Positions 4,505 to 43,755 of a stretch of 45,478 nt of DNA are shown in pieces. The notes under the pieces are model-generated. The model searched no databases, had not been told where the DNA came from, and saw only the letters and a list, made by a program, of their open reading frames with translations. The stretch's first letter is position 1. The number at the start of each line of letters is the position of its first letter. The translations under genes and the position numbers were made by a program. Source of the DNA: Burkholderiaceae bacterium (GTDB lineage: Bacteria > Pseudomonadota > Gammaproteobacteria > Burkholderiales > Burkholderiaceae_D); assembly GCA_018262475.1 (NCBI GenBank), contig JAGSYW010000001.1, positions 1 through 45,478 of the forward strand. The letters are read 5' to 3'.

Positions 4505-4633
4505 GCCCAGGGCTGGCGAAAGCGTGGCTTCAGCCAGCTTTTCGCCATTTTTAAGCCCCAAACATACTTCCTAGTGTATTCAAAAACAGCCCCTTAGTAT
4601 GAGGCCCCAAAAGGTGATTTCTGCACATACCCC
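4505..4633 (-). repeat. Dispersed ~115-nt repeat, copy 5 (reverse orientation, different 3' module)
   Basis: The reverse complement reads GGGGTATGTGCAGAAATCACCTTTTGGGGCCTCATACTAAGGGGCTGTTTTTGAATACACTAGGAAGTATGTTTGGGGCTTAAAAATGGCG... It shares the GGGGTAT start, GGCC, CTGTTTTT-AATAC-N-GTAT-TTT core with the other copies. Confidence 0.6.
4514..4552 (+). terminator. Intrinsic terminator after the DUF4431-like gene
   Basis: Long stem TGGCGAAAGC...GCTTTTCGCCA with an inner TGGC-TTCA-GCCA hairpin, followed by T5 (4548-4552). Confidence 0.65.
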
Positions 4634-4646
4634 AGCAAAACCCGTT

Positions 4647-12014: not shown

Positions 12015-12251
12015 ATGAAAACTGTGGTGACGATATTGACTTTTGCCCTTTCCGCAATCGCCGTTTCAACTGCGCATGCACAAGCCAGTTGCATGAAGGA
12101 CTGCGACACAAACGCAAAACAATGCATTGCCAAACATTCTAAAGCAGACTGGTGGGGCAACAAGATCGCGACGCCTGAAGGAGAAAAAGCCTGTCAGGAC
12201 AGTGCGCGAGAATGCAGAAGAAATTGCGTAAAACAGATGTCGACAAAATAG
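12015..12251 (+). CDS. Small secreted cysteine-rich protein (78 aa, 6 Cys after the signal peptide)
   Basis: AGGAG SD motif, signal peptide MKTVVTILTFALSAIAVSTAHA. I recognise no family. Confidence 0.5.
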   Translation: MKTVVTILTFALSAIAVSTAHAQASCMKDCDTNAKQCIAKHSKADWWGNKIATPEGEKACQDSARECRRNCVKQMSTK

Positions 12252-12364
12252 CAGCCGACTCTTTTCTATTCAATGCAGCTTGGCACGAAGGCTCTGATGG
12301 GCGCTGCAGCGGCAGTCAGGGGCTTCGCGCTTGCGCTATTTTTCGTTCAGCAATGAAAAAATGA

Positions 12365-12480
12365 GGGGTATATGGCCAAAACCATGCCACAGGCCACATT
12401 TTTAGAGGATGTTTTTAAATACTGGATGGAGTATATTTTTAAGGCCTTACTGACCAAAAATGCGTTTTGGTCAGTTATTT
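12365..12480 (+). repeat. Dispersed ~115-nt repeat, copy 1 (most complete)
   Basis: GGGGTATATGGCCAAAACCATGCCACAGGCCACATTTTTAGAGGATGTTTTTAAATACTGGATGGAGTATATTTTTAAGGCCTTACTGACCAAAAATGCGTTTTGGTCAGTTATTT. The terminal hairpin CTGACCAAAA/TTTTGGTCAG is perfect and is followed by TTATTT. Confidence 0.85.
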
Positions 12481-12553
12481 CAAAGCCAAGCTCAAGCACT
12501 TGAATCCCTGATGCATTGCTTCAACGGTCGCCAGAACAGCAGATTGAGCCTCC

Positions 12554-12997
12554 CTACCCCTGAACAGCAGAATCAGCAACCGATTGCATAATCTGGTGCC
12601 AACCCGGCTGCGCATTTTTACCGGCCGCGATAAATGCTTCATTCAACTGCCGCAACTGGGTCGCAGTCAGTTGCTGTTCCAGTTGCTGTCCGCTTTCTGT
12701 CAAGCGCAGTTCCTTGGCGCGACGGTCGTGTTCCGCCTTTGCCGTTGCAACCAGCCCCATGTCAATCAACTGGCGCAACGGACTGTTCAGCGCCTGCTTC
12801 GTCACTTGCAACGTATTCAGCAACGAGGTCACCGTCATGCCGGGATGACGGGCAACGAAATACAGAATGCGGTGGTGTACGCGCCCCAGCCCGCGGCGCT
12901 CCAGGATTTTGTCCGGCAGCGCGGTGAACGAGCGGTACGCGAAATAGAACAACTCGATCGATTCAAGCGCCGCTGGATTGTGATTTAGGTCAACCAT
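12554..12997 (-). CDS. MarR-family transcriptional regulator
   Basis: 147 aa with a winged helix-turn-helix region (HHRILYFVARHPGMTVTSLLNTLQVTKQALNSPLRQLIDMGLV). Divergent from the aminotransferase gene. Confidence 0.85.
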   Translation of the reverse strand: MVDLNHNPAALESIELFYFAYRSFTALPDKILERRGLGRVHHRILYFVARHPGMTVTSLLNTLQVTKQALNSPLRQLIDMGLVATAKAEHDRRAKELRLTESGQQLEQQLTATQLRQLNEAFIAAGKNAQPGWHQIMQSVADSAVQG

Positions 12998-14278: not shown

Positions 14279-14965
14279 TCAATCAGCGAGGAAAGTCGCA
14301 AACGCGGAAACCGGCTCGCGCTCGGACACCAGGCGGTTGATCGGCTCGTTCATGTCGGCATACCCGAGCGCCATGCCGCTAATCAGGATCTCCTCCTGAT
14401 CCAGCTTCAGCTCCGATGCAACCACACTATGAAAATCGCTCCAACCAAACTGCAGGCAAGTGCCCAGCCCGCGCGCACGGGCGGCGATCATGAAGTTCTG
14501 GAAAAAAGCGCCGTAATCAATGTAATACGCCTGCGGTAAGCTGCGGTTCAAGGTAAAGAACAAACCGACCGGCGCGCCAAAAAATTCGAAATTCTTCCGC
14601 GCCTGCAAGCGCATGCGCTCGCTGTCGCCTTTCTCGATGCCGACTAAATCGTACATTGCGAAACCAAGCTTCCGGCGGCGGGACATAAACGGCTCGATGA
14701 ATTTTTCCGGGTAGTACGGGTAAACGCTCTTGAATTTTTCCGGCCCGGAATCGAACGCCTGGCACACCGCCCCGGTTACGCGCTTAAGCGCCCCTCCGGT
14801 CAGCACATACGCCTTCCACGGCTGCAAGTTGGTGGACGAAGGCGCGCGCGAAGCCAAATCGAGCAGCTCCGTCACCAGCGCAGCCGGAACGGGCTTATCG
14901 AGATAGGCACGAATGGAATGGCGGCTGCGAATGGCCGCATCAACAGCGGCGACGGCATCAGTCAT
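14279..14965 (-). CDS. Nitroreductase-family protein
   Basis: Internal ATG at 14963-14965 follows GGAG. RHSIRAYLDKPVP and SSTNLQPW are typical nitroreductase motifs. Confidence 0.85.
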   Translation of the reverse strand: MTDAVAAVDAAIRSRHSIRAYLDKPVPAALVTELLDLASRAPSSTNLQPWKAYVLTGGALKRVTGAVCQAFDSGPEKFKSVYPYYPEKFIEPFMSRRRKLGFAMYDLVGIEKGDSERMRLQARKNFEFFGAPVGLFFTLNRSLPQAYYIDYGAFFQNFMIAARARGLGTCLQFGWSDFHSVVASELKLDQEEILISGMALGYADMNEPINRLVSEREPVSAFATFLAD

Positions 14966-15135
14966 GAAACGCTCCTCAGTGGAAATAACACGCGCCATTA
15001 TGCACCAGGGCTCTGCCATCCAACACCTGATTCGCATGGAATGGAAATAGATGTCGAAACGAGCGCGTCACGCCGTTCAGCCAGACAGCCTGCGCGCCGA
15101 TAACTCGACGCACGCCGAACTCCGGCAAAAAATGT

Positions 15136-15250
15136 GGGGTATATGACCAAAACCAAGCAATAGGCCTTTATTTTGCTGGCTGTTTTTAAATACTAGATGG
15201 AGTATGTTTTTTAGCCTTAATGACCGAAAATTCATTTAAAGTCAGTTATT
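15136..15250 (+). repeat. Dispersed ~115-nt repeat, copy 2
   Basis: GGGGTATATGACCAAAACCAAGCAATAGGCCTTTATTTTGCTGGCTGTTTTTAAATACTAGATGGAGTATGTTTTTTAGCCTTAATGACCGAAAATTCATTTAAAGTCAGTTATT. Roughly three quarters of positions match copy 1 by eye. Confidence 0.8.
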
Positions 15251-15398
15251 GGCGTTATGGGAAGGACATGGCTCACTGTTGCTCGCACGCCAGCCCATAA
15301 TCTGCAATACCAGCCATGCAAAAACGGCGTAGAGTACGATCTGCGAGAATTTTCCGGCGCAATAAATTGCCGGCAACAGTCCGAACACCGTAAATCTC

Positions 15399-16733
15399 AT
15401 GAAAACTCTCAAACGCTCCTTCTGGGGCTTTCTCTTATTCTTAAGCTTGTTGTGGTGGCTGGCAGACACTACCAAATGGTCATCCCTGAATGACATCTTT
15501 GCCTATCGCGGCGTGCTGATGCAGTACACCGGCATCATCGCCATCGGCGTCATGAGCGTCGCCACCATCCTTTCTGTCCGCCCCATTCTGCTGGAACGGC
15601 CGTTTGACGGTCTCGATAAAATGTACCGCCTGCACAAGTGGCTGGGCATCGCCGGTCTGGTCATGGCCGTTGCGCACTGGCTGGTGGTCGAGGGACCACG
15701 ATGGATGGTATCGCTCGGCTGGATAGTGCGCACCTCGCGCCGCATACCGCCGGCAATGCAGGAAGGCTCGCTGCAGCACCTGCTGTCGCTGCAACGCGGC
15801 CTGGCAGCCAAAATGGGAGAATATGCCTTTTATCTGGCCGTGCTGCTGATAGTTCTCGCACTCATCAAGCGTTTTCCCTACCGCCAGTTTTTCCAGACTC
15901 ACCGCATCCTGGCCCTGACCTATCTGGCGCTGGTGTTCCACTCGGTAGTATTCATGCGCTACGCCTACTGGAGCACACCGCTCGGCATCTTCATGCTGAT
16001 ATTGATGGGGCTGGGCAGCATCTCCGCCGTGCTGGCCTTGTTCCGCAAGCGCGTCGGCCGAAGCCCAATAGATGGGCAAGTGAGCGCCATTGAAATGCAC
16101 CCCGCCATTGACCTGATGGAAGTCAGCATCCGGATGGATAAAGGCTGGGCAGGACATGCTGCCGGGCAGTTCGCCTTCGTCACTTTCCACAAGAACGAAG
16201 GGCCGCACCCGTTCACCATTTCCTCACCCGGGGAACAAGAAGGCAACATCAAATTCCTGATCAAGGGCATAGGCGATTACACCCAAACGCTGCCAGAACG
16301 ACTGCGGGTTGGCGATCAGGTCAAAGTGGAAGGCCCATACGGACGTTTCAATTTTGACGGCGATACCCAGCGACAGATCTGGATCGCCGGCGGCGTCGGC
16401 ATTGCCCCGTTCCTTGCAAAAATGCGCGAGAGAGCCAGGCAATCCGACGGCAAGGTCATCGAACTGTTCTACTCGACCTCGACCCACAATCCGGCTTTTG
16501 CCGCAGAATTGTCCCGCACCGCTGCAGAGGCCAAGGTTCAACTCCATTACCGCAGTAGCAAGCAGGACGGGCGATTCGATCTGGAAACCATCCTCAATAG
16601 CGTGCCGGAATGGCGCGAAGCCGATGTCTGGTTCTGCGGCCCCGAATCATTTGGTGCGATGCTGCAACAAGGATTCGCCAATGCAGGCGTGCCCGAGAAA
16701 CGGTTCCACCGCGAACTGTTCGAGATGCGTTAG
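15399..16733 (+). CDS. Ferric-reductase-domain / FNR-like flavoprotein fusion (bacterial NOX/FRE-family homologue)
   Basis: 444 aa. His pairs H79/H93 and H168/H181 sit in TM helices with 13- and 12-residue spacing. HPFTISS (FAD), GGVGIAPF (NAD(P)H) and FCGP motifs present. Confidence 0.85.
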   Translation: MKTLKRSFWGFLLFLSLLWWLADTTKWSSLNDIFAYRGVLMQYTGIIAIGVMSVATILSVRPILLERPFDGLDKMYRLHKWLGIAGLVMAVAHWLVVEGPRWMVSLGWIVRTSRRIPPAMQEGSLQHLLSLQRGLAAKMGEYAFYLAVLLIVLALIKRFPYRQFFQTHRILALTYLALVFHSVVFMRYAYWSTPLGIFMLILMGLGSISAVLALFRKRVGRSPIDGQVSAIEMHPAIDLMEVSIRMDKGWAGHAAGQFAFVTFHKNEGPHPFTISSPGEQEGNIKFLIKGIGDYTQTLPERLRVGDQVKVEGPYGRFNFDGDTQRQIWIAGGVGIAPFLAKMRERARQSDGKVIELFYSTSTHNPAFAAELSRTAAEAKVQLHYRSSKQDGRFDLETILNSVPEWREADVWFCGPESFGAMLQQGFANAGVPEKRFHRELFEMR

Positions 16734-16841
16734 GCGGCGACTGGTTCCACTCGTTACCCGCCCCGCATTCTGGCACCGCCGCCCATTTCGGACAATAAAA
16801 AGTGGTCAGGCCCGTATGAATGCGAGCCTGCCGCTTGGGTT

Positions 16842-18290: not shown

Positions 18291-18628
18291 TAAGAAATTG
18301 TCAGGGCGGACAGACGATGCCAAGTCTTACATCTTTCAGTCACGCCTACCGCATCAAATCCACCATACGCGAGCATATCGACATCCTGGTATGCGTCGGC
18401 CACCACAGTAGGCGCCCGCTCTGCCAAAACCGTCACGCGTACTTTGCCAGATTTCACACCATCAACACAAACTGCACCGTTTCTGCGCGCTCGCGAAATG
18501 CGTGGCGCAATGTATGCGCGTCGGGGCGATGTGAGCCTGAACGCTTGAATCTAATCCAAATCACGCCGCACAGCACAACGATCTGCGCCTTATGGCTCAA
18601 TGCACGTCAAACGCTCGCGGAAAATCAT

Positions 18629-18743
18629 GGGGTATATAGCCAAAACACCACTTTGGGCCACGGATTTTCTGGATATTTATAAATACTGCCTAGTGTATAT
18701 TTTTTGGCCTTACTGACCAAAAAATCATTTAAGTCAGTTATTT
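18629..18743 (+). repeat. Dispersed ~115-nt repeat, copy 3
   Basis: GGGGTATATAGCCAAAACACCACTTTGGGCCACGGATTTTCTGGATATTTATAAATACTGCCTAGTGTATATTTTTTGGCCTTACTGACCAAAAAATCATTTAAGTCAGTTATTT. Confidence 0.8.
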
Positions 18744-18812
18744 GGGGGTGGCGGACAGAACATGGTTCACGCTTGTTCGCGCTTCCGCACATCAATTACG
18801 TTCTATCCCCGA

Positions 18813-19220
18813 TTATTTTTTGTCACCAGCATTTCCACGAATAACAATCATAACCATAAGAATGATTCCATAAATAAACCCGTCAAACAAAATACCACCA
18901 AGTATCCTTTCGCCTGTAACAACGCGATGCACCATAAATGTAGTTGTTACACCAAACACCAACACAACGGATATGTATTGCAACACTATTATTGCAACGC
19001 CCTGTTTTAATATTAACCAAATAATTGCAGGAAACAAGAAGACCCATCCGTTCCACGGAAATATTATTGTTAATGCAAAATTAGCTATATCCGTTAATAA
19101 CTGAAATGGATTTTTAGGAATAATTAGATACAACTTAATATGCGCATACTCAAAATATGTTGCAATTACAACAGCCAATGCCTGTGATAATAAGCATAAA
19201 TATTGTTTTGCATGCTTCAT
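18813..19220 (-). CDS. Hypothetical multi-TM membrane protein in an AT-rich islet
   Basis: 135-aa ORF with about 4 hydrophobic helices. ATG start but no clear SD motif. The local sequence is much more AT-rich than its flanks by eye. Confidence 0.45.
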   Translation of the reverse strand: MKHAKQYLCLLSQALAVVIATYFEYAHIKLYLIIPKNPFQLLTDIANFALTIIFPWNGWVFLFPAIIWLILKQGVAIIVLQYISVVLVFGVTTTFMVHRVVTGERILGGILFDGFIYGIILMVMIVIRGNAGDKK

Positions 19221-32164: not shown

Positions 32165-32196
32165 TTGTTCTTCTGGTTGCAATGCCGTTCCGGTGG

Positions 32197-32274
32197 CTCA
32201 AAAAATACTCCGGCCAGTATTTTTACATCGCCAGGAAATACGTGGCCAAGCACATTGTTTTCAGCTCATACCCC
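32197..32274 (-). repeat. Dispersed repeat, copy 6 (5' core only, no terminal hairpin module) between thrC and moeA
   Basis: The reverse complement reads GGGGTATGAGCTGAAAACAATGTGCTTGGCCACGTATTTCCTGGCGATGTAAAAATACTGGCCGGAGTATTTTTTGAG. It shares GGGGTAT, GGCCAC and AAATACTGG-N-GGAGTAT-TTTT with copy 1. Confidence 0.65.
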
Positions 32275-32308
32275 GCCCAAAACCTCTATATTAGTGCAGC
32301 CAGTCGCA

Positions 32309-41206: not shown

Positions 41207-42334
41207 ATGAACCAGACAACCGAACGGCCTCCCGAACTTGCACCCGACCTGCCTCGCCTCGCCATCCGCTCACTGGTGCCGGTGGCTGTGTTGCTGGCCG
41301 CGCTGGCGCTACTGCCGTTCTGGCCCGGCGGCGGCGCAATCCGCTGGCTCGGCATCGTGCTGGCAGGCGCTGCCCTGCTGCTGTTCTGCCTGGCTGTACT
41401 GCGTATCCTTGCTCCCTTAGCGCAACGCATTCGGCAGGACGCCGACCTGCTGGCCGAGCGCGAACAGGATCTGGAACAACTGCTGGCCGCCTGCCCAAGC
41501 GCAATGCTGCTAGTTGATGCGGAAACCCTCGCTATTGTGCGAGCAAACCGCAAGCTGCTCGAACTGACTAGCCGCGCATCAGGCGAACTGGACGGCCTCG
41601 CGCTGGAGAGCCTGCTCGCGCCCGGTTCCGGCACGAACCGCGATTTTATCGATAAGATTCAGGGCGCCCGAACATTGAACGAATTCGAAATCGCACTGCT
41701 CGACCGGAAAAATGACGTGGTCGAATCGCTGGTATCGACCAGCGCGTTGCGCTTTGGCGGACGCGACGCGCTGCTGCTCGGCTTCACCGACATCAACGAA
41801 CTGCGGCAGGCGCAGCACAGCCACGAATACTATGCCAGCTACGACGAACTGACCGGCCTGACCAACCGCCGCACCGGGTTGATGTTCCTGGAAAAAGCAA
41901 TGGCACGCGCGTGGCGCGAAAGTAGTCCGCTAACAGTGATTCACGCCGACCTCGACGGGCTGAAACAGACGAATGAAATTTACGGCCATGCGGCAGGCGA
42001 CCGGCTGATCCGCGCCGCCGCCAACATCATGACCGGCCTGATCCGCAGCTCCGATTTCGCCGTGCGCCTTGGTGGCAACAAATTCCTGATAATCCTGCCC
42101 AACTGCGCGCCGGACAATGCACAACGGATTGCCGGCAACCTTGAACACTTGCTGGCCGCGCTCAAGGCCGAAGACGATCGCCGCCACGTGCTTTATGCCA
42201 TCAGCTGCGGCATCGCCGGCTATGCCTCCGACGTGCATGCCACGGCAGAGGAACTGATCACCGCCGCCGCGTCAGCACGCGCGCAGGCAAACCAAACGGT
42301 GTCCGCAAGCACCGAGGTCACGCTCCCGGCCTGA
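41207..42334 (+). CDS. Membrane-anchored PAS protein with a degenerate GGDEF domain (GGNKF, RxxD I-site retained)
   Basis: GGAGG SD motif. 2 TM helices, a PAS-like region, then DELTGLTNRR...IRSSDFAVRLGGNKFLIIL. Confidence 0.85.
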   Translation: MNQTTERPPELAPDLPRLAIRSLVPVAVLLAALALLPFWPGGGAIRWLGIVLAGAALLLFCLAVLRILAPLAQRIRQDADLLAEREQDLEQLLAACPSAMLLVDAETLAIVRANRKLLELTSRASGELDGLALESLLAPGSGTNRDFIDKIQGARTLNEFEIALLDRKNDVVESLVSTSALRFGGRDALLLGFTDINELRQAQHSHEYYASYDELTGLTNRRTGLMFLEKAMARAWRESSPLTVIHADLDGLKQTNEIYGHAAGDRLIRAAANIMTGLIRSSDFAVRLGGNKFLIILPNCAPDNAQRIAGNLEHLLAALKAEDDRRHVLYAISCGIAGYASDVHATAEELITAAASARAQANQTVSASTEVTLPA

Positions 42335-42342
42335 TAACCTTT

Positions 42343-42457
42343 GGGGTATATACGCAAAATAGGCTATTAGGCCAATTGTTTGGTGGCTGTTTTAAAATAC
42401 TGGCAGGAGTATATTTTTTATCCTTACTGACCAGAACGTCAGTTTGAGTCAGTTATT
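42343..42457 (+). repeat. Dispersed ~115-nt repeat, copy 4
   Basis: GGGGTATATACGCAAAATAGGCTATTAGGCCAATTGTTTGGTGGCTGTTTTAAAATACTGGCAGGAGTATATTTTTTATCCTTACTGACCAGAACGTCAGTTTGAGTCAGTTATTT. It begins 8 nt after the stop of the upstream gene. Confidence 0.8.
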
Positions 42458-42609
42458 TGGACGTTCTGACAGAGCCCACGCAATGCAGGAAAACAGAACC
42501 AGAGCGAATGGCGGCTTTTGCCGCAAAGGCAAATAGAATTCAGCCACTCTTTTCAACACCACCTGCAGACCAACCAGCAGACCATCAGTCAGCCATCAAC
42601 CGATCTAGC

Positions 42610-43020
42610 ATGAACGAACGAAACCTATCTGATGCCGACCAAATCCGCGCAGCCAGAACGGCGCAAACCGCCGCCATCGCCCAAGGCGATTTCGAGGCCA
42701 TCCCGACATTCTGGACCGAGGACATCACCGTGCGCCGTGCGCTAGGCCAAGCGGTCAACGGTGTGGAGCAAGCGCTGGCGGCGCTTAAGCCCAATGACGA
42801 TACGCCACTGGTTTATCAACGCGAAGCGGTGTCGGTCGAGGTCAGCGCGCACTGGCCGCTCGCGTTCGAGGAAGGACGCTGGTCCGGCCACCCTGGAAAT
42901 GCCAAGGCGGCGCCTGTCATCGGCGGACGTTATGCGGCGCAGTGGGTGAAGCAAGGTGGCCGCTGGCTGATCCGATCCGAAGTGTTCGTCGCACTGACTC
43001 GCTCCGGCACTGAAAACTGA
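42610..43020 (+). CDS. SnoaL-like / DUF4440 (NTF2-fold) protein
   Basis: Internal ATG at 42610. 136 aa. The pattern ...F..DITVRR..G....G.......W..QGGRWLIRSEVF is typical of NTF2-like small proteins. Confidence 0.65.
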   Translation: MNERNLSDADQIRAARTAQTAAIAQGDFEAIPTFWTEDITVRRALGQAVNGVEQALAALKPNDDTPLVYQREAVSVEVSAHWPLAFEEGRWSGHPGNAKAAPVIGGRYAAQWVKQGGRWLIRSEVFVALTRSGTEN

Positions 43021-43249: not shown

Positions 43250-43546
43250 ATGCTGACAAGCTGTTTGAATGATGTCATTGAGACAGGGTTTGTTCTGTCT
43301 ATTTGTTTTTTGTCGGTGTGCGTCGTTCGCACCATTACTGCTATGTTACCTATCATTCCGCTCCTAATCGGCGCCATTCCGGTGCTAACTTTTGCCAGTT
43401 TCTGCGGCATTGCCATTTATTGCCTGATTTCCGAGAAAAAGCACAAGCAACAGCTTGGAAAGTACTACAACCATCCCGACCACGATCGGCCACTGTACAA
43501 CATGGGGCACTGTGACCGTTATTCGGCTGGAACCTTTTCCTGGTAA
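43250..43546 (+). CDS. Hypothetical small membrane protein (start uncertain)
   Basis: The track ORF starts at a TTG (43142). An internal ATG at 43250 would give ~98 aa with two hydrophobic helices. AT-rich context, no family recognised. Confidence 0.3.
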   Translation: MLTSCLNDVIETGFVLSICFLSVCVVRTITAMLPIIPLLIGAIPVLTFASFCGIAIYCLISEKKHKQQLGKYYNHPDHDRPLYNMGHCDRYSAGTFSW

Positions 43547-43600
43547 TCTCTCGCAAAGGTGCTATGGAGCATCATCCCCTGAAACACCCCCCCTCTCGGG

Positions 43601-43680
43601 GGGGCAACGCCAGCTGAAACCCATTCATTCGGCTTGAGTTTTCAAGGCATCCCCGAATACCGGATGGAATATGCTTTGGT
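43601..43680 (+). repeat. Probable degenerate copy 7 of the dispersed repeat (5' core only)
   Basis: GGGGCAACGCCAGCTGAAACCCATTCATTCGGCTTGAGTTTTCAAGGCATCCCCGAATACCGGATGGAATATGCTTTGG. It shares AGCTGAAA(A/C)C with copy 6 and AATAC-CGGATGG-AATAT with the core hairpin, with similar spacing. Confidence 0.35.
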
Positions 43681-43755
43681 GCGATTCAGCCCGGAAAATT
43701 CTTTTCCCGCTTTTCTCTTTGCAGTTCCCTGCTGAGGCCTGTACAGCTGCCCTGC

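Follow-up and report, generated by a model that had tools for sequence, protein, structure and literature searches.

At positions 12365 to 12480 of a 45,478-nt stretch of DNA from Burkholderiaceae bacterium (GenBank assembly GCA_018262475.1, contig JAGSYW010000001.1, positions 1 to 45,478 of the forward strand; hereafter the window) lies a short intergenic sequence that the original prediction, made from the letters alone, had listed as one of seven dispersed copies. Dispersed intergenic repeats are common in bacteria, and tolerated junk can rarely be separated from what is used by the cell. Our analysis revealed that it belongs to a real, clade-specific family of interspersed non-coding elements. 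The family is undescribed, abundant within its clade, and of the broad kind of bacterial interspersed intergenic elements. Here, individual copies can be traced across four or five species-level lineages in matching positions, with 3–9% change in ~32–65 fixed positions versus saturation between them, and with spacer lengths unaltered. Such a contrast would make the family a clean case of an exapted mobile element, and narrows its mechanism to sequence and geometry, not RNA folding. The cell probably uses the element, since copies have hardly changed in corresponding places of several species, and the family is thus best regarded as a mobile element probably exapted by its host.

Extent and anatomy of the repeat family

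A hidden Markov model (HMM) built from four clean copies was searched with nhmmer against the whole window and recovered 7/7 listed sites (c1 to c7; four at E ~1e-35, three weaker), with no other window segment scoring comparably. Repeat finding returned a four-member direct-repeat family of 124 nt with starts at 12356, 15127, 18620, and 42334, and a MAFFT alignment agrees. We also scanned GTDB, with one genome per species, for the pattern GGGGTATAT-N40-46-AAATACT-N6-8-GTATNTTTTT (25 specified bases), which matched 58 loci versus ~0.02 chance matches expected. As many as 54/58 lie on 29 contigs (~2.05 Mb) of the metagenome-assembled genome (MAG) Burkholderiaceae bacterium CTSoil_111, which bears out the anticipated abundance of the family; the other four carry a shorter, core-only form and belong to CAWIOX01 (one), JAZKIX01 (two), and Ampullimonas aquatilis (one). 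nhmmer searches over the 8-kb loci yielded 75 copies, ~60 of full length. The window and CTSoil_111 are syntenic at 82–89% DNA identity and therefore represent related species. The element is borne by a small clade of uncultured betaproteobacteria from soil and freshwater, whose nearest named relatives are Oxalobacteraceae; in metagenomes it offers a strong marker for this clade. The proposed novelty held: Rfam gave no window match at gathering thresholds, and only chance-level ones around c1 (E >= 1, searched to E 10); the consensus found no BLAST match in distant mode among PLSDB plasmids and INPHARED phages; and sequence-string and keyword searches of the literature retrieved no description of the element.

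Alignment of 61 copies with 80-nt flanks uncovered sharp boundaries and the consensus GGGGTATATAGCCAAAACnnnnCGCyGGGCCACATwTTTGCTGGCTGTTTTTAAATACTGnnnnnAGTATATTTTTyrGCCTTAyTGACCnAAAnnnnnTTnnGGTCAGTTATTTTGG. The element is 80–115 nt long, ~40% G+C, and largely non-palindromic. It consists of an ~80-nt core, namely GGGGTATAT, 43 nt, AAATACT, 6 nt, and AGTATATTTTT, and of an optional ~38-nt module termed H3 (CTTAYTGACC, a 13–16-nt loop, and GGTCAGTTATTTT). GGGGTAT, ATAC, GTAT, TTTTT, and TCA are invariant in the alignment of 62 copies, in which ~65 columns are at least 90% conserved; bases are near-random at positions 22–30, in the middle of the small palindrome, and in the final hairpin loop. The shared blocks named in the original prediction are thus all real, most of them conserved above 90% over 62 copies.

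In c1 itself, a full copy on the plus strand (core and H3 module, 12365..12480; nhmmer 12361-12482, E = 2e-35), the invariant left end or block B1, GGGGTATAT, occupies 12365..12373(+), with GGGGTAT in 62/62 aligned copies and a sharp edge in the flank profile. B1 combines a G-tract with a GTAT half-site. It is followed at 12392..12411(+) by the small palindrome H1 (consensus GGCCA, ~9 nt, TGGCT, then a T run), in which C34/C35 are invariant and the five pairs are 91% paired without compensatory change. Palindrome H2, at 12417..12440(+), reads AAATACT, GGATGG, AGTATAT, then TTTTT, its arms being invariant in 62/62 copies, and the H3 module at 12446..12480(+), an optional hairpin with a T-tract, reads CTTACTGACC, loop, GGTCAGTTATTT.

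The spacings are as constant as the blocks. No indel was found in the 43 nt between GGGGTATAT and AAATACT, and both this and the 6-nt spacer are indel-free across ~80 copies; the 43-nt stretch itself holds AAA, GCCA, TTT, and GGC at fixed positions. The internal direct repeat noticed earlier is indeed present, with GGGGTATAT starting at position 1 and GGAGTATAT 63 nt further on, at position 64. By contrast, the imperfect terminal inverted repeats once proposed for c1 did not survive the alignment of 62 copies, where the true termini, GGGGTATAT and GTCAGTTATTTT, are unrelated and not complementary; the likeness seen was that of a subterminal CCAAAA next to the H3 palindrome. Reading frames are inconsistent between copies on both strands, with ATGs in different frames and loops of varying length, and inspection of the alignments thus rejects a coding element.

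About 15 copies are core-only and end in the T-run, among them c5, c6, c7, and all four matches outside the clade. The H3 module is missing from these copies and from more distant lineages, whereas six CTSoil copies carry a second, tandem H3-like module; neither solitary H3 modules nor solitary element ends occur in the sequence searched. The core is the ancestral unit, with the form GG(G/A)GTAT(A/G)T, 43 nt, AAATAC(T), 6 G/C-rich nt, and (A)GTAT(A)TTTT, and the core plus H3 is the younger, amplified form.

Two further observations concern individual genomes. The Ampullimonas aquatilis copy (L059 2161-2236), core-only, occupies a divergent intergenic region ~250 nt upstream of smc, and the spacer of its central dyad is AT-rich and 7 nt long, unlike those of clade copies. 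In CTSoil_111, two more repeated modules, each present seven times, sit directly upstream of some copies: 'upA' (~100 nt; upstream flanks of L014, L023, L041, L034, L052, L004, and L037) and 'upB' (L006, L007, L028, L032, L033, L039, and L051). This genome seems to hold several mosaic intergenic repeat families.

Copies at orthologous sites and at gene ends

Window copies c1, c4, and the degenerate c7 occupy orthologous positions in CTSoil_111. For a deeper comparison, the SLT (lytic transglycosylase) gene next to two CTSoil copies served as the starting point to collect syntenic contigs from the relatives L141, L143, and L142 (79%, 76%, and 72% protein identity, respectively), along with L144, a longer piece of the CTSoil genome. 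Four sites are element-filled in every lineage covering each of them: site A, with a core-only copy; site B, the 112–137-nt interval between the SLT gene and an 86-aa gene, filled in four lineages; site C, adjoining a NUDIX gene; and site D, after metF. The site B copy is full in two lineages and core-only in two, and runs antisense to the operon in all four. In two outgroup relatives (67–69% protein identity) the site B interval measures only 13–20 nt by gene calls, and in the 67% relative sites A and C measure only 1–6 nt, which therefore leaves no room for a copy. The contrast of filled and empty sites that had been put forward as a check was hence found, with four lineages filled and two outgroup intervals too short. 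Herminiimonas arsenicoxydans contains zero copies in 22 syntenic kb, and among 80 metagenome loci around an aminotransferase gene, drawn from relatives at 63–68% identity, copies occurred only in the CTSoil genome itself.

One extra full copy (L045 2311-2429) was evident only in CTSoil_111, beside an old core-only copy, which indicates that amplification of the core+H3 form continued after the lineage split; the flanks of this CTSoil-specific insertion are too diverged for junction alignment. Together, the filled versus empty orthologous sites and this lineage-specific gain support a mobile origin. On this comparative evidence, short intergenic spacers at gene ends received the element in the common ancestor of a small betaproteobacterial clade. 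Within the SLT gene, the two CTSoil records differ by 60 nt (L045 4710/4711 versus L144 11575-11636) and are otherwise 100% identical over 8 kb; the discrepancy may stem from assembly or masking, or be a genuine length polymorphism.

Once inserted, copies have stayed at their sites. Between window copies and their CTSoil orthologues, 4/130 family-conserved columns differ, against ~24% of third codon positions in neighbour genes (binomial P = 4e-11). Across the four lineages, divergence rises from 8.9% in conserved columns to 47% in intermediate and 65% in variable ones. Orthologues also share derived states that same-genome paralogues lack, e.g., GGAG and TGTAT at site B, and gene conversion or concerted evolution therefore does not explain the constancy of the blocks. 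As judged from these substitution patterns, the copies are old, and purifying selection acts at each site on both the conserved blocks and the spacer lengths, constraining ~32 core positions (~65 for a full copy) along with every internal spacing. A guide- or seed-like role of the variable segments is dismissed, since orthologues do not conserve them.

Placement relative to genes was scored with a codon-usage gene caller trained on the loci. Full copies number 30 between convergent genes (71 such intervals in the same loci), 25 between co-directional genes (256 intervals), and three in divergent regions (64 intervals). The co-directional copies comprise 12 in the same and 13 in the opposite orientation, and those in convergent regions show no asymmetry in distance to the two flanking genes (16 vs 18). 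Orientation is thus random relative to transcription, while placement strongly favours gene ends and avoids divergent promoter regions. The earlier impression that six of seven window copies point like the upstream gene is thereby overturned; that count was uninformative, because in a convergent region either orientation is scored as that of an upstream gene. Many copies begin 2–30 nt past a stop codon, and several copies sit directly after a canonical terminator. Some abut, overlap, or even supply the stop codons of neighbour genes, either as TAG in GGGGTATATAG or as TAA, the reverse complement of GTTATTT (L045 2311-2321, and the 3' ends of copies in L044, L014, L055, and L053), so that insertions remodelled the C-termini of these genes. 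Full copies also sometimes lie in tandem with old core-only ones (L018 5813-5889 and 5942-6062; L144 9176-9294 and 9325-9397), and new copies may land preferentially beside existing ones.

A putative protein-binding platform and its rivals

What, then, would the cell use the element for? We propose an exapted mobile element that serves as a putative protein-binding DNA platform, where a host factor would dock on the core by reading it as double-stranded DNA, not as structured RNA. We hold this reading tentatively, as plausible rather than probable, and regard the terminator, small-RNA, and purely selfish readings as weaker. Its centre would be the dyad TACT-(G/C)6-AGTA, whose fixed-length spacer is, as a block, rich in either G or C, and a third half-site, G-tract plus GTATAT, would be contributed by B1 exactly 63 bp (six helical turns) upstream. 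In the left flank, a weak A/T-rich tract 5–9 nt upstream of the element falls where the missing left arm of this upstream half-site would be. The loop of H2 had been described as differing between copies; it is not free, for the spacer of TACT-N6-AGTA is exactly 6 nt long in 81/83 copies and 82% G+C, being G-rich in 48 and C-rich in 18 (66/83 copies together). A mutual-information scan of 95 cores further evidenced that spacer positions covary like with like (G..G or C..C). This coupling points to double-stranded DNA, because a dyad binder would be blind to which strand carries the G- or the C-tract and an RNA loop would not, and the H2 'hairpin' accordingly looks like a double-stranded protein-binding palindrome. 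Invariant non-palindromic blocks, fixed spacings, and lack of pairing covariation likewise fit double-stranded DNA recognition better than a strand-specific RNA role, as does an orientation independent of transcription, with a site B copy that has been antisense throughout the history of the clade. By analogy with BIME/RIP elements, such a platform at gene ends might act as a topological, architectural, or road-block site; BIME/RIP elements bind IHF, gyrase, and Pol I, and the Pseudomonas ones are biased towards convergent genes (PMC3184786). The H3 hairpin with its T-tract may add secondary termination in one orientation.

This site architecture resembles the type-1 CsoR/RcnR operator, built of AT-rich TACT/AGTA inverted repeats 6–9 bp apart around a G/C tract, as in the Escherichia coli RcnR operator TACT-G6-N-AGTA (PMC3902906). 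H2 has the TACT/AGTA arms within this distance, AT-rich and 6 bp apart around a G/C-rich spacer, and the occurrence of either a G-rich or a C-rich spacer is as expected for strand-symmetric shape read-out. In addition, GGGGTATAT is identical to one half of ATATACCCCTNAGGGGTATAT, the CsoR consensus of Streptomyces lividans (PMC3902906), and the nearby second G-tract and GTATAT half-site recalls tandem sites. True CsoR/RcnR operators, however, number one or few per genome and lie at metal-efflux or regulator promoters, whereas the element sites number tens to hundreds and lie at gene ends. We therefore take the likeness as resemblance in site read-out, not as membership, because the sites are at gene ends and far too numerous, the tract is usually interrupted, and no DUF156 gene was found in the 1.4 Mb searched.

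Several points weigh against a protein-binding platform. A candidate binding protein was not found, and tblastn with approximate DUF156 (CsoR/RcnR) query sequences detected no such gene in 1.4 Mb. The G/C tract of the spacer is mostly interrupted (GGCAGG, GGCGGG, GCACCC), the sites avoid the promoters where true CsoR/RcnR operators lie, and ~65 constrained positions exceed the needs of a typical protein-binding site. In forward orientation the element presents three short palindromes each followed by a T run, like a terminator array, and these could reflect a role at the RNA level. Finally, enrichment at convergent gene ends is equally expected of an element that is merely tolerated. A more specific form of the proposal is doubtful at present: the ~80-bp core would be a genome-wide composite site, in tens to hundreds of copies, for a putative DNA-binding protein that reads a TAC/GTA dyad around a G/C tract and a phased third half-site, seeded across the chromosome by a mobile element lacking both inverted repeats and target duplications and then fixed at gene ends. 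If so, a mobile element would have given rise to a lineage-specific nucleoid or transcription-boundary system, and its mode of transposition would also be undescribed. More generally, a binding protein, if found, would reveal a new lineage-specific chromosome-organising or transcription-boundary system and provide a handle on transposition without inverted repeats or target duplications.

Two rivals to a DNA platform place function in RNA. The element might act in cis at mRNA 3' ends or between cistrons, where hairpins and U-runs would terminate, protect, or process transcripts in the manner of REP stabilisers, ERIC, or the pneumococcal SPRITE terminator-like element. REP and ERIC provide precedents (PMC3184786), and the succession of H1, H2, and H3, each with its T run in the forward consensus, the folding of H3 in every copy tested, the many starts shortly after stop codons (8 nt past that of a GGDEF gene in c4), and the enrichment at gene 3' ends (~30/58 full copies convergent, 3 divergent) all fit such a role. 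Yet orientation is random among co-directional genes and distances at convergent ones are symmetric, and at site B the copy is antisense to the operon in four lineages, the reverse strand lacking a hairpin with a U-run. Several copies already lie directly behind a canonical terminator. Compensatory changes are absent: the H1/H2/H3 palindromes are 87% paired, but their covariation score (0.057) did not exceed the shuffled mean (0.062; 448/500 shuffles >= observed), and the mutual-information scan of 95 cores detected no Watson-Crick covariation. The 3' arm of H3, GTCAGTTATTT, is nearly invariant while its 5' arm decays without compensation (TTGACC, TTGAAC, TTAAAC), the sixth pair being a C:A mismatch in 26/62 copies, and hairpin function does not need an invariant stem sequence. 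The stems are of 5 bp and AT-rich; as a terminator, H3 would offer 5–6 pairs, ~3 of them G-C, a loop of 13–16 nt, and the tail TTATTTT, and a terminator consensus scan flagged 0 copies even though the hairpin folds. The RNAalifold consensus reached no more than -3.3 kcal/mol and contained one invariant 5-bp stem only, individual copies fold into different structures (z-scores +0.8 to -3.9), and end-to-end pairing is absent from the folds. Likewise, a hairpin in the variable region just after GGGGTATAT was no better than shuffles (mean dG -4.55 vs -4.46 kcal/mol, 77 copies). RNA structure is therefore not supported by any sign in these data, and a cis-acting RNA role seems unlikely. Very improbable, in our view, is a set of independently transcribed small-RNA genes sharing a scaffold, with their own promoters and T-run terminators. 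Orientation independent of neighbour genes, the conserved blocks, a core and an H3 module that both end in T-runs, a weakly conserved A/T-rich hexamer 4–9 nt upstream of GGGG, and a good -10-like TATACT on the reverse strand would all suit small RNAs. However, the flank profile lacks a -35 signal and ~1/3 of the upstream hexamers are T-runs, not -10-like; a simple promoter scan found no forward match either, which disposes of a forward sigma-70 promoter. The reverse -10 pairs with a weak -35 in 39/89 copies, none of them core-only. Against the small-RNA genes envisaged earlier also speak the lack of an Rfam match, of a conserved fold, and of covariation, and variable segments that, differing between orthologues, cannot be seeds or guides.

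Alternatively, the family could be purely selfish, non-autonomous mobile DNA of MITE- or REPIN-like type (MITE, miniature inverted-repeat transposable element), whose conserved blocks serve the needs of a putative transposase. Filled versus empty sites and the CTSoil-specific gain would follow directly, as would the high copy number and sharp boundaries, the insertions that reach into gene ends and supply stop codons, the decayed copies c5–c7, and the avoidance of promoter regions. The needs of transposition, though, cannot hold the sequence of a site after insertion, yet conserved columns have diverged by 3–9% next to columns that are saturated, and most testable sites are shared between species, not polymorphic. 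The mechanistic hallmarks are missing as well. Terminal inverted repeats are absent, and target-site duplication was not detected in a flank comparison of 57 copies (longest common flank string, mean 3.98 nt vs 4.06 +/- 0.11 permuted), in agreement with the first reading of the window. No transposase lies between oppositely oriented copy pairs in ~0.5 Mb, where the genes are housekeeping ones, and no RAYT (TnpA_REP) gene was seen among genes between or beside copy pairs, nor in the window. We thus consider a purely selfish family improbable. With both of the features that define a MITE absent, the element is not one, despite being small (80–115 nt), non-coding, multicopy (54 strict-pattern loci in one MAG), and evidently inserted; of the MITE-like element suggested before, the mobile origin stands and the terminal inverted repeats do not.

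Compared with described families, the element is distinct by its fixed geometry, its CsoR/RcnR-like dyad, and unusually clear purifying selection at orthologous sites, and, as had been surmised, it is none of Correia, REP/BIME, ERIC, or attC. REP/BIME elements of Enterobacteriaceae and Pseudomonas, including the IHF-binding RIP/RIB, resemble it in their tens to hundreds of extragenic copies, preference for gene 3' ends and convergent genes, modular build (here core with or without H3 or a second H3), absence of target duplications, occurrence in either orientation, and evidence or precedent for host-protein binding (PMC3184786). REPs, though, are imperfect palindromes of 20–40 nt, rich in G+C and headed by a conserved GTAG, that RAYTs mobilise as REPINs, whereas the element is 80–115 nt long, AT-rich at ~40% G+C, and mostly non-palindromic, has no GTAG head, has no RAYT among the genes between or beside copy pairs or in the window, and shows invariant blocks at fixed spacings in copies held at orthologous sites, without population turnover; REP, BIME, and REPIN were accordingly rejected. 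BOX of Streptococcus pneumoniae (boxA, repeated boxB, boxC) shares the combination of a constant part with a module that is absent, single, or repeated (here core with zero, one, or two H3), the ~100 intergenic copies, and the lack of a known transposase (PMC3184786). The sequences are unrelated, and boxA-boxC complementarity predicts long stable RNA hairpins, whereas the element lacks end-to-end complementarity. Correia (NEMIS/CREE) and ERIC are alike in size, gene-end placement, and provision of signals such as promoters or stop codons to neighbours, with which they are co-transcribed, and carry IHF sites (PMC3184786). They have terminal inverted repeats, end-to-end folding, and TA flanks, and the element has none of these: no end-to-end pairing appeared in folds, and no TA or other duplication was seen. 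The known example of a 'mobile terminator cassette' is also a dispersed repeat whose 3' part looks like a hairpin with a T-run (PMC3184786); in the element, by contrast, hairpins are short and AT-rich, one with a long loop, orientation is random, and stems are conserved in sequence, not in pairing.

Integron attC sites have core sites R''/L''...L'/R' of the form RYYYAAC ... GTTRRRY and are clustered in cassette arrays of one orientation. The element ends GCCAAAAC and GTTATTT misfit this consensus, and the copies, found in either orientation, are scattered among housekeeping genes. Other candidates were compared by their consensus sequences, and none fits: sigma-54, sigma-32, sigma-28, and ECF (extracytoplasmic function) promoters, by eye, and LexA, IHF, Fis, dif/Xer, and Tn3 and Tn7 ends.

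The copies of the window and their surroundings

The window is an ordinary betaproteobacterial chromosome segment of 56% G+C, with mgtA, corA, clpB, ftsK, lolA, thrC, and moeA. Copy c1 lies between the small open reading frame (ORF) 12015-12251(+) and a marR-like gene at 12554-12997(-), and its CTSoil_111 orthologue (L051 2160-2280) differs in 3/65 conserved columns. The small ORF, the true upstream neighbour of c1, encodes 78 aa and was missed by an ORF cut-off of 80 aa; it has a good Shine-Dalgarno sequence, a signal-peptide-like N-terminus, several cysteines, and no Pfam match.

Copy c2, full, at 15136..15250(+) (nhmmer 15132-15254, E = 3e-35), occupies the divergent intergenic region 14279-15037(-) / 15399-16733(+). 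It is missing from CTSoil_111 along with the downstream gene, at a synteny break between window 15003-16835 and L051 5329-5421. Only 92 nt (L051 5329-5421) replace c2 and the FAD-binding oxidoreductase gene 15399-16733 there, that is, a gene-plus-element indel between species. Copy c3, also full, sits at a convergent gene end (18629..18743(+); nhmmer 18626-18747, E = 3e-35) and is probably orthologous to L051 6686-6801, from which it differs in 4/65 conserved columns. The surrounding segment 17840-22740 is not collinear with CTSoil_111; inside it, G+C falls to 31–37% at 18.8–19.3 kb, where ORF 18813-19220(-) has no Pfam family, and the segment may be recently acquired DNA. The last full copy, c4, at 42343..42457(+) (nhmmer 42340-42462, E = 2e-34), begins 8 nt past the stop of the GGDEF gene 41207-42334(+) and is followed by a SnoaL-like gene at 42610-43020(+); its orthologue in CTSoil_111 (L046 2392-2513) differs in 1/65 conserved columns.

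The remaining copies are core-only. Copy c5, divergent (GGGGTATGT ... GAATACA, N6, AGTATGTTT), had been drawn at 4505-4633(-), of which the core is real at 4558..4633(-) (nhmmer 4553-4634, E = 9e-7; E = 1e-12 with a broader HMM) and the remainder is unrelated terminator-like sequence; it begins 13 nt past the corA stop in a convergent region. Copy c6, at 32199..32274(-) (nhmmer 32180-32275, E = 3e-13; 3e-17 with the broader HMM), fills the gap that runs from the thrC stop (32309) to the moeA start (32182), oriented like both genes. Copy c7, at 43599..43680(+) (nhmmer 43617-43703, E = 4e-3), is a degenerate core that reads GGGGGCAAC ... GAATACC, GGATGG, AATATG, and its orthologue at the CTSoil site is degenerate to the same degree. 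Reaching into its left end, ~190 nt of the window (43411-43604) are ~97% identical to CTSoil_111, versus ~85% in the surroundings; this segment spans the 3' end of a small ORF (stop 43544-43546) and then a C7-TCTC-G7 hairpin (43587-43604), which shares its last bases with the beginning of c7.

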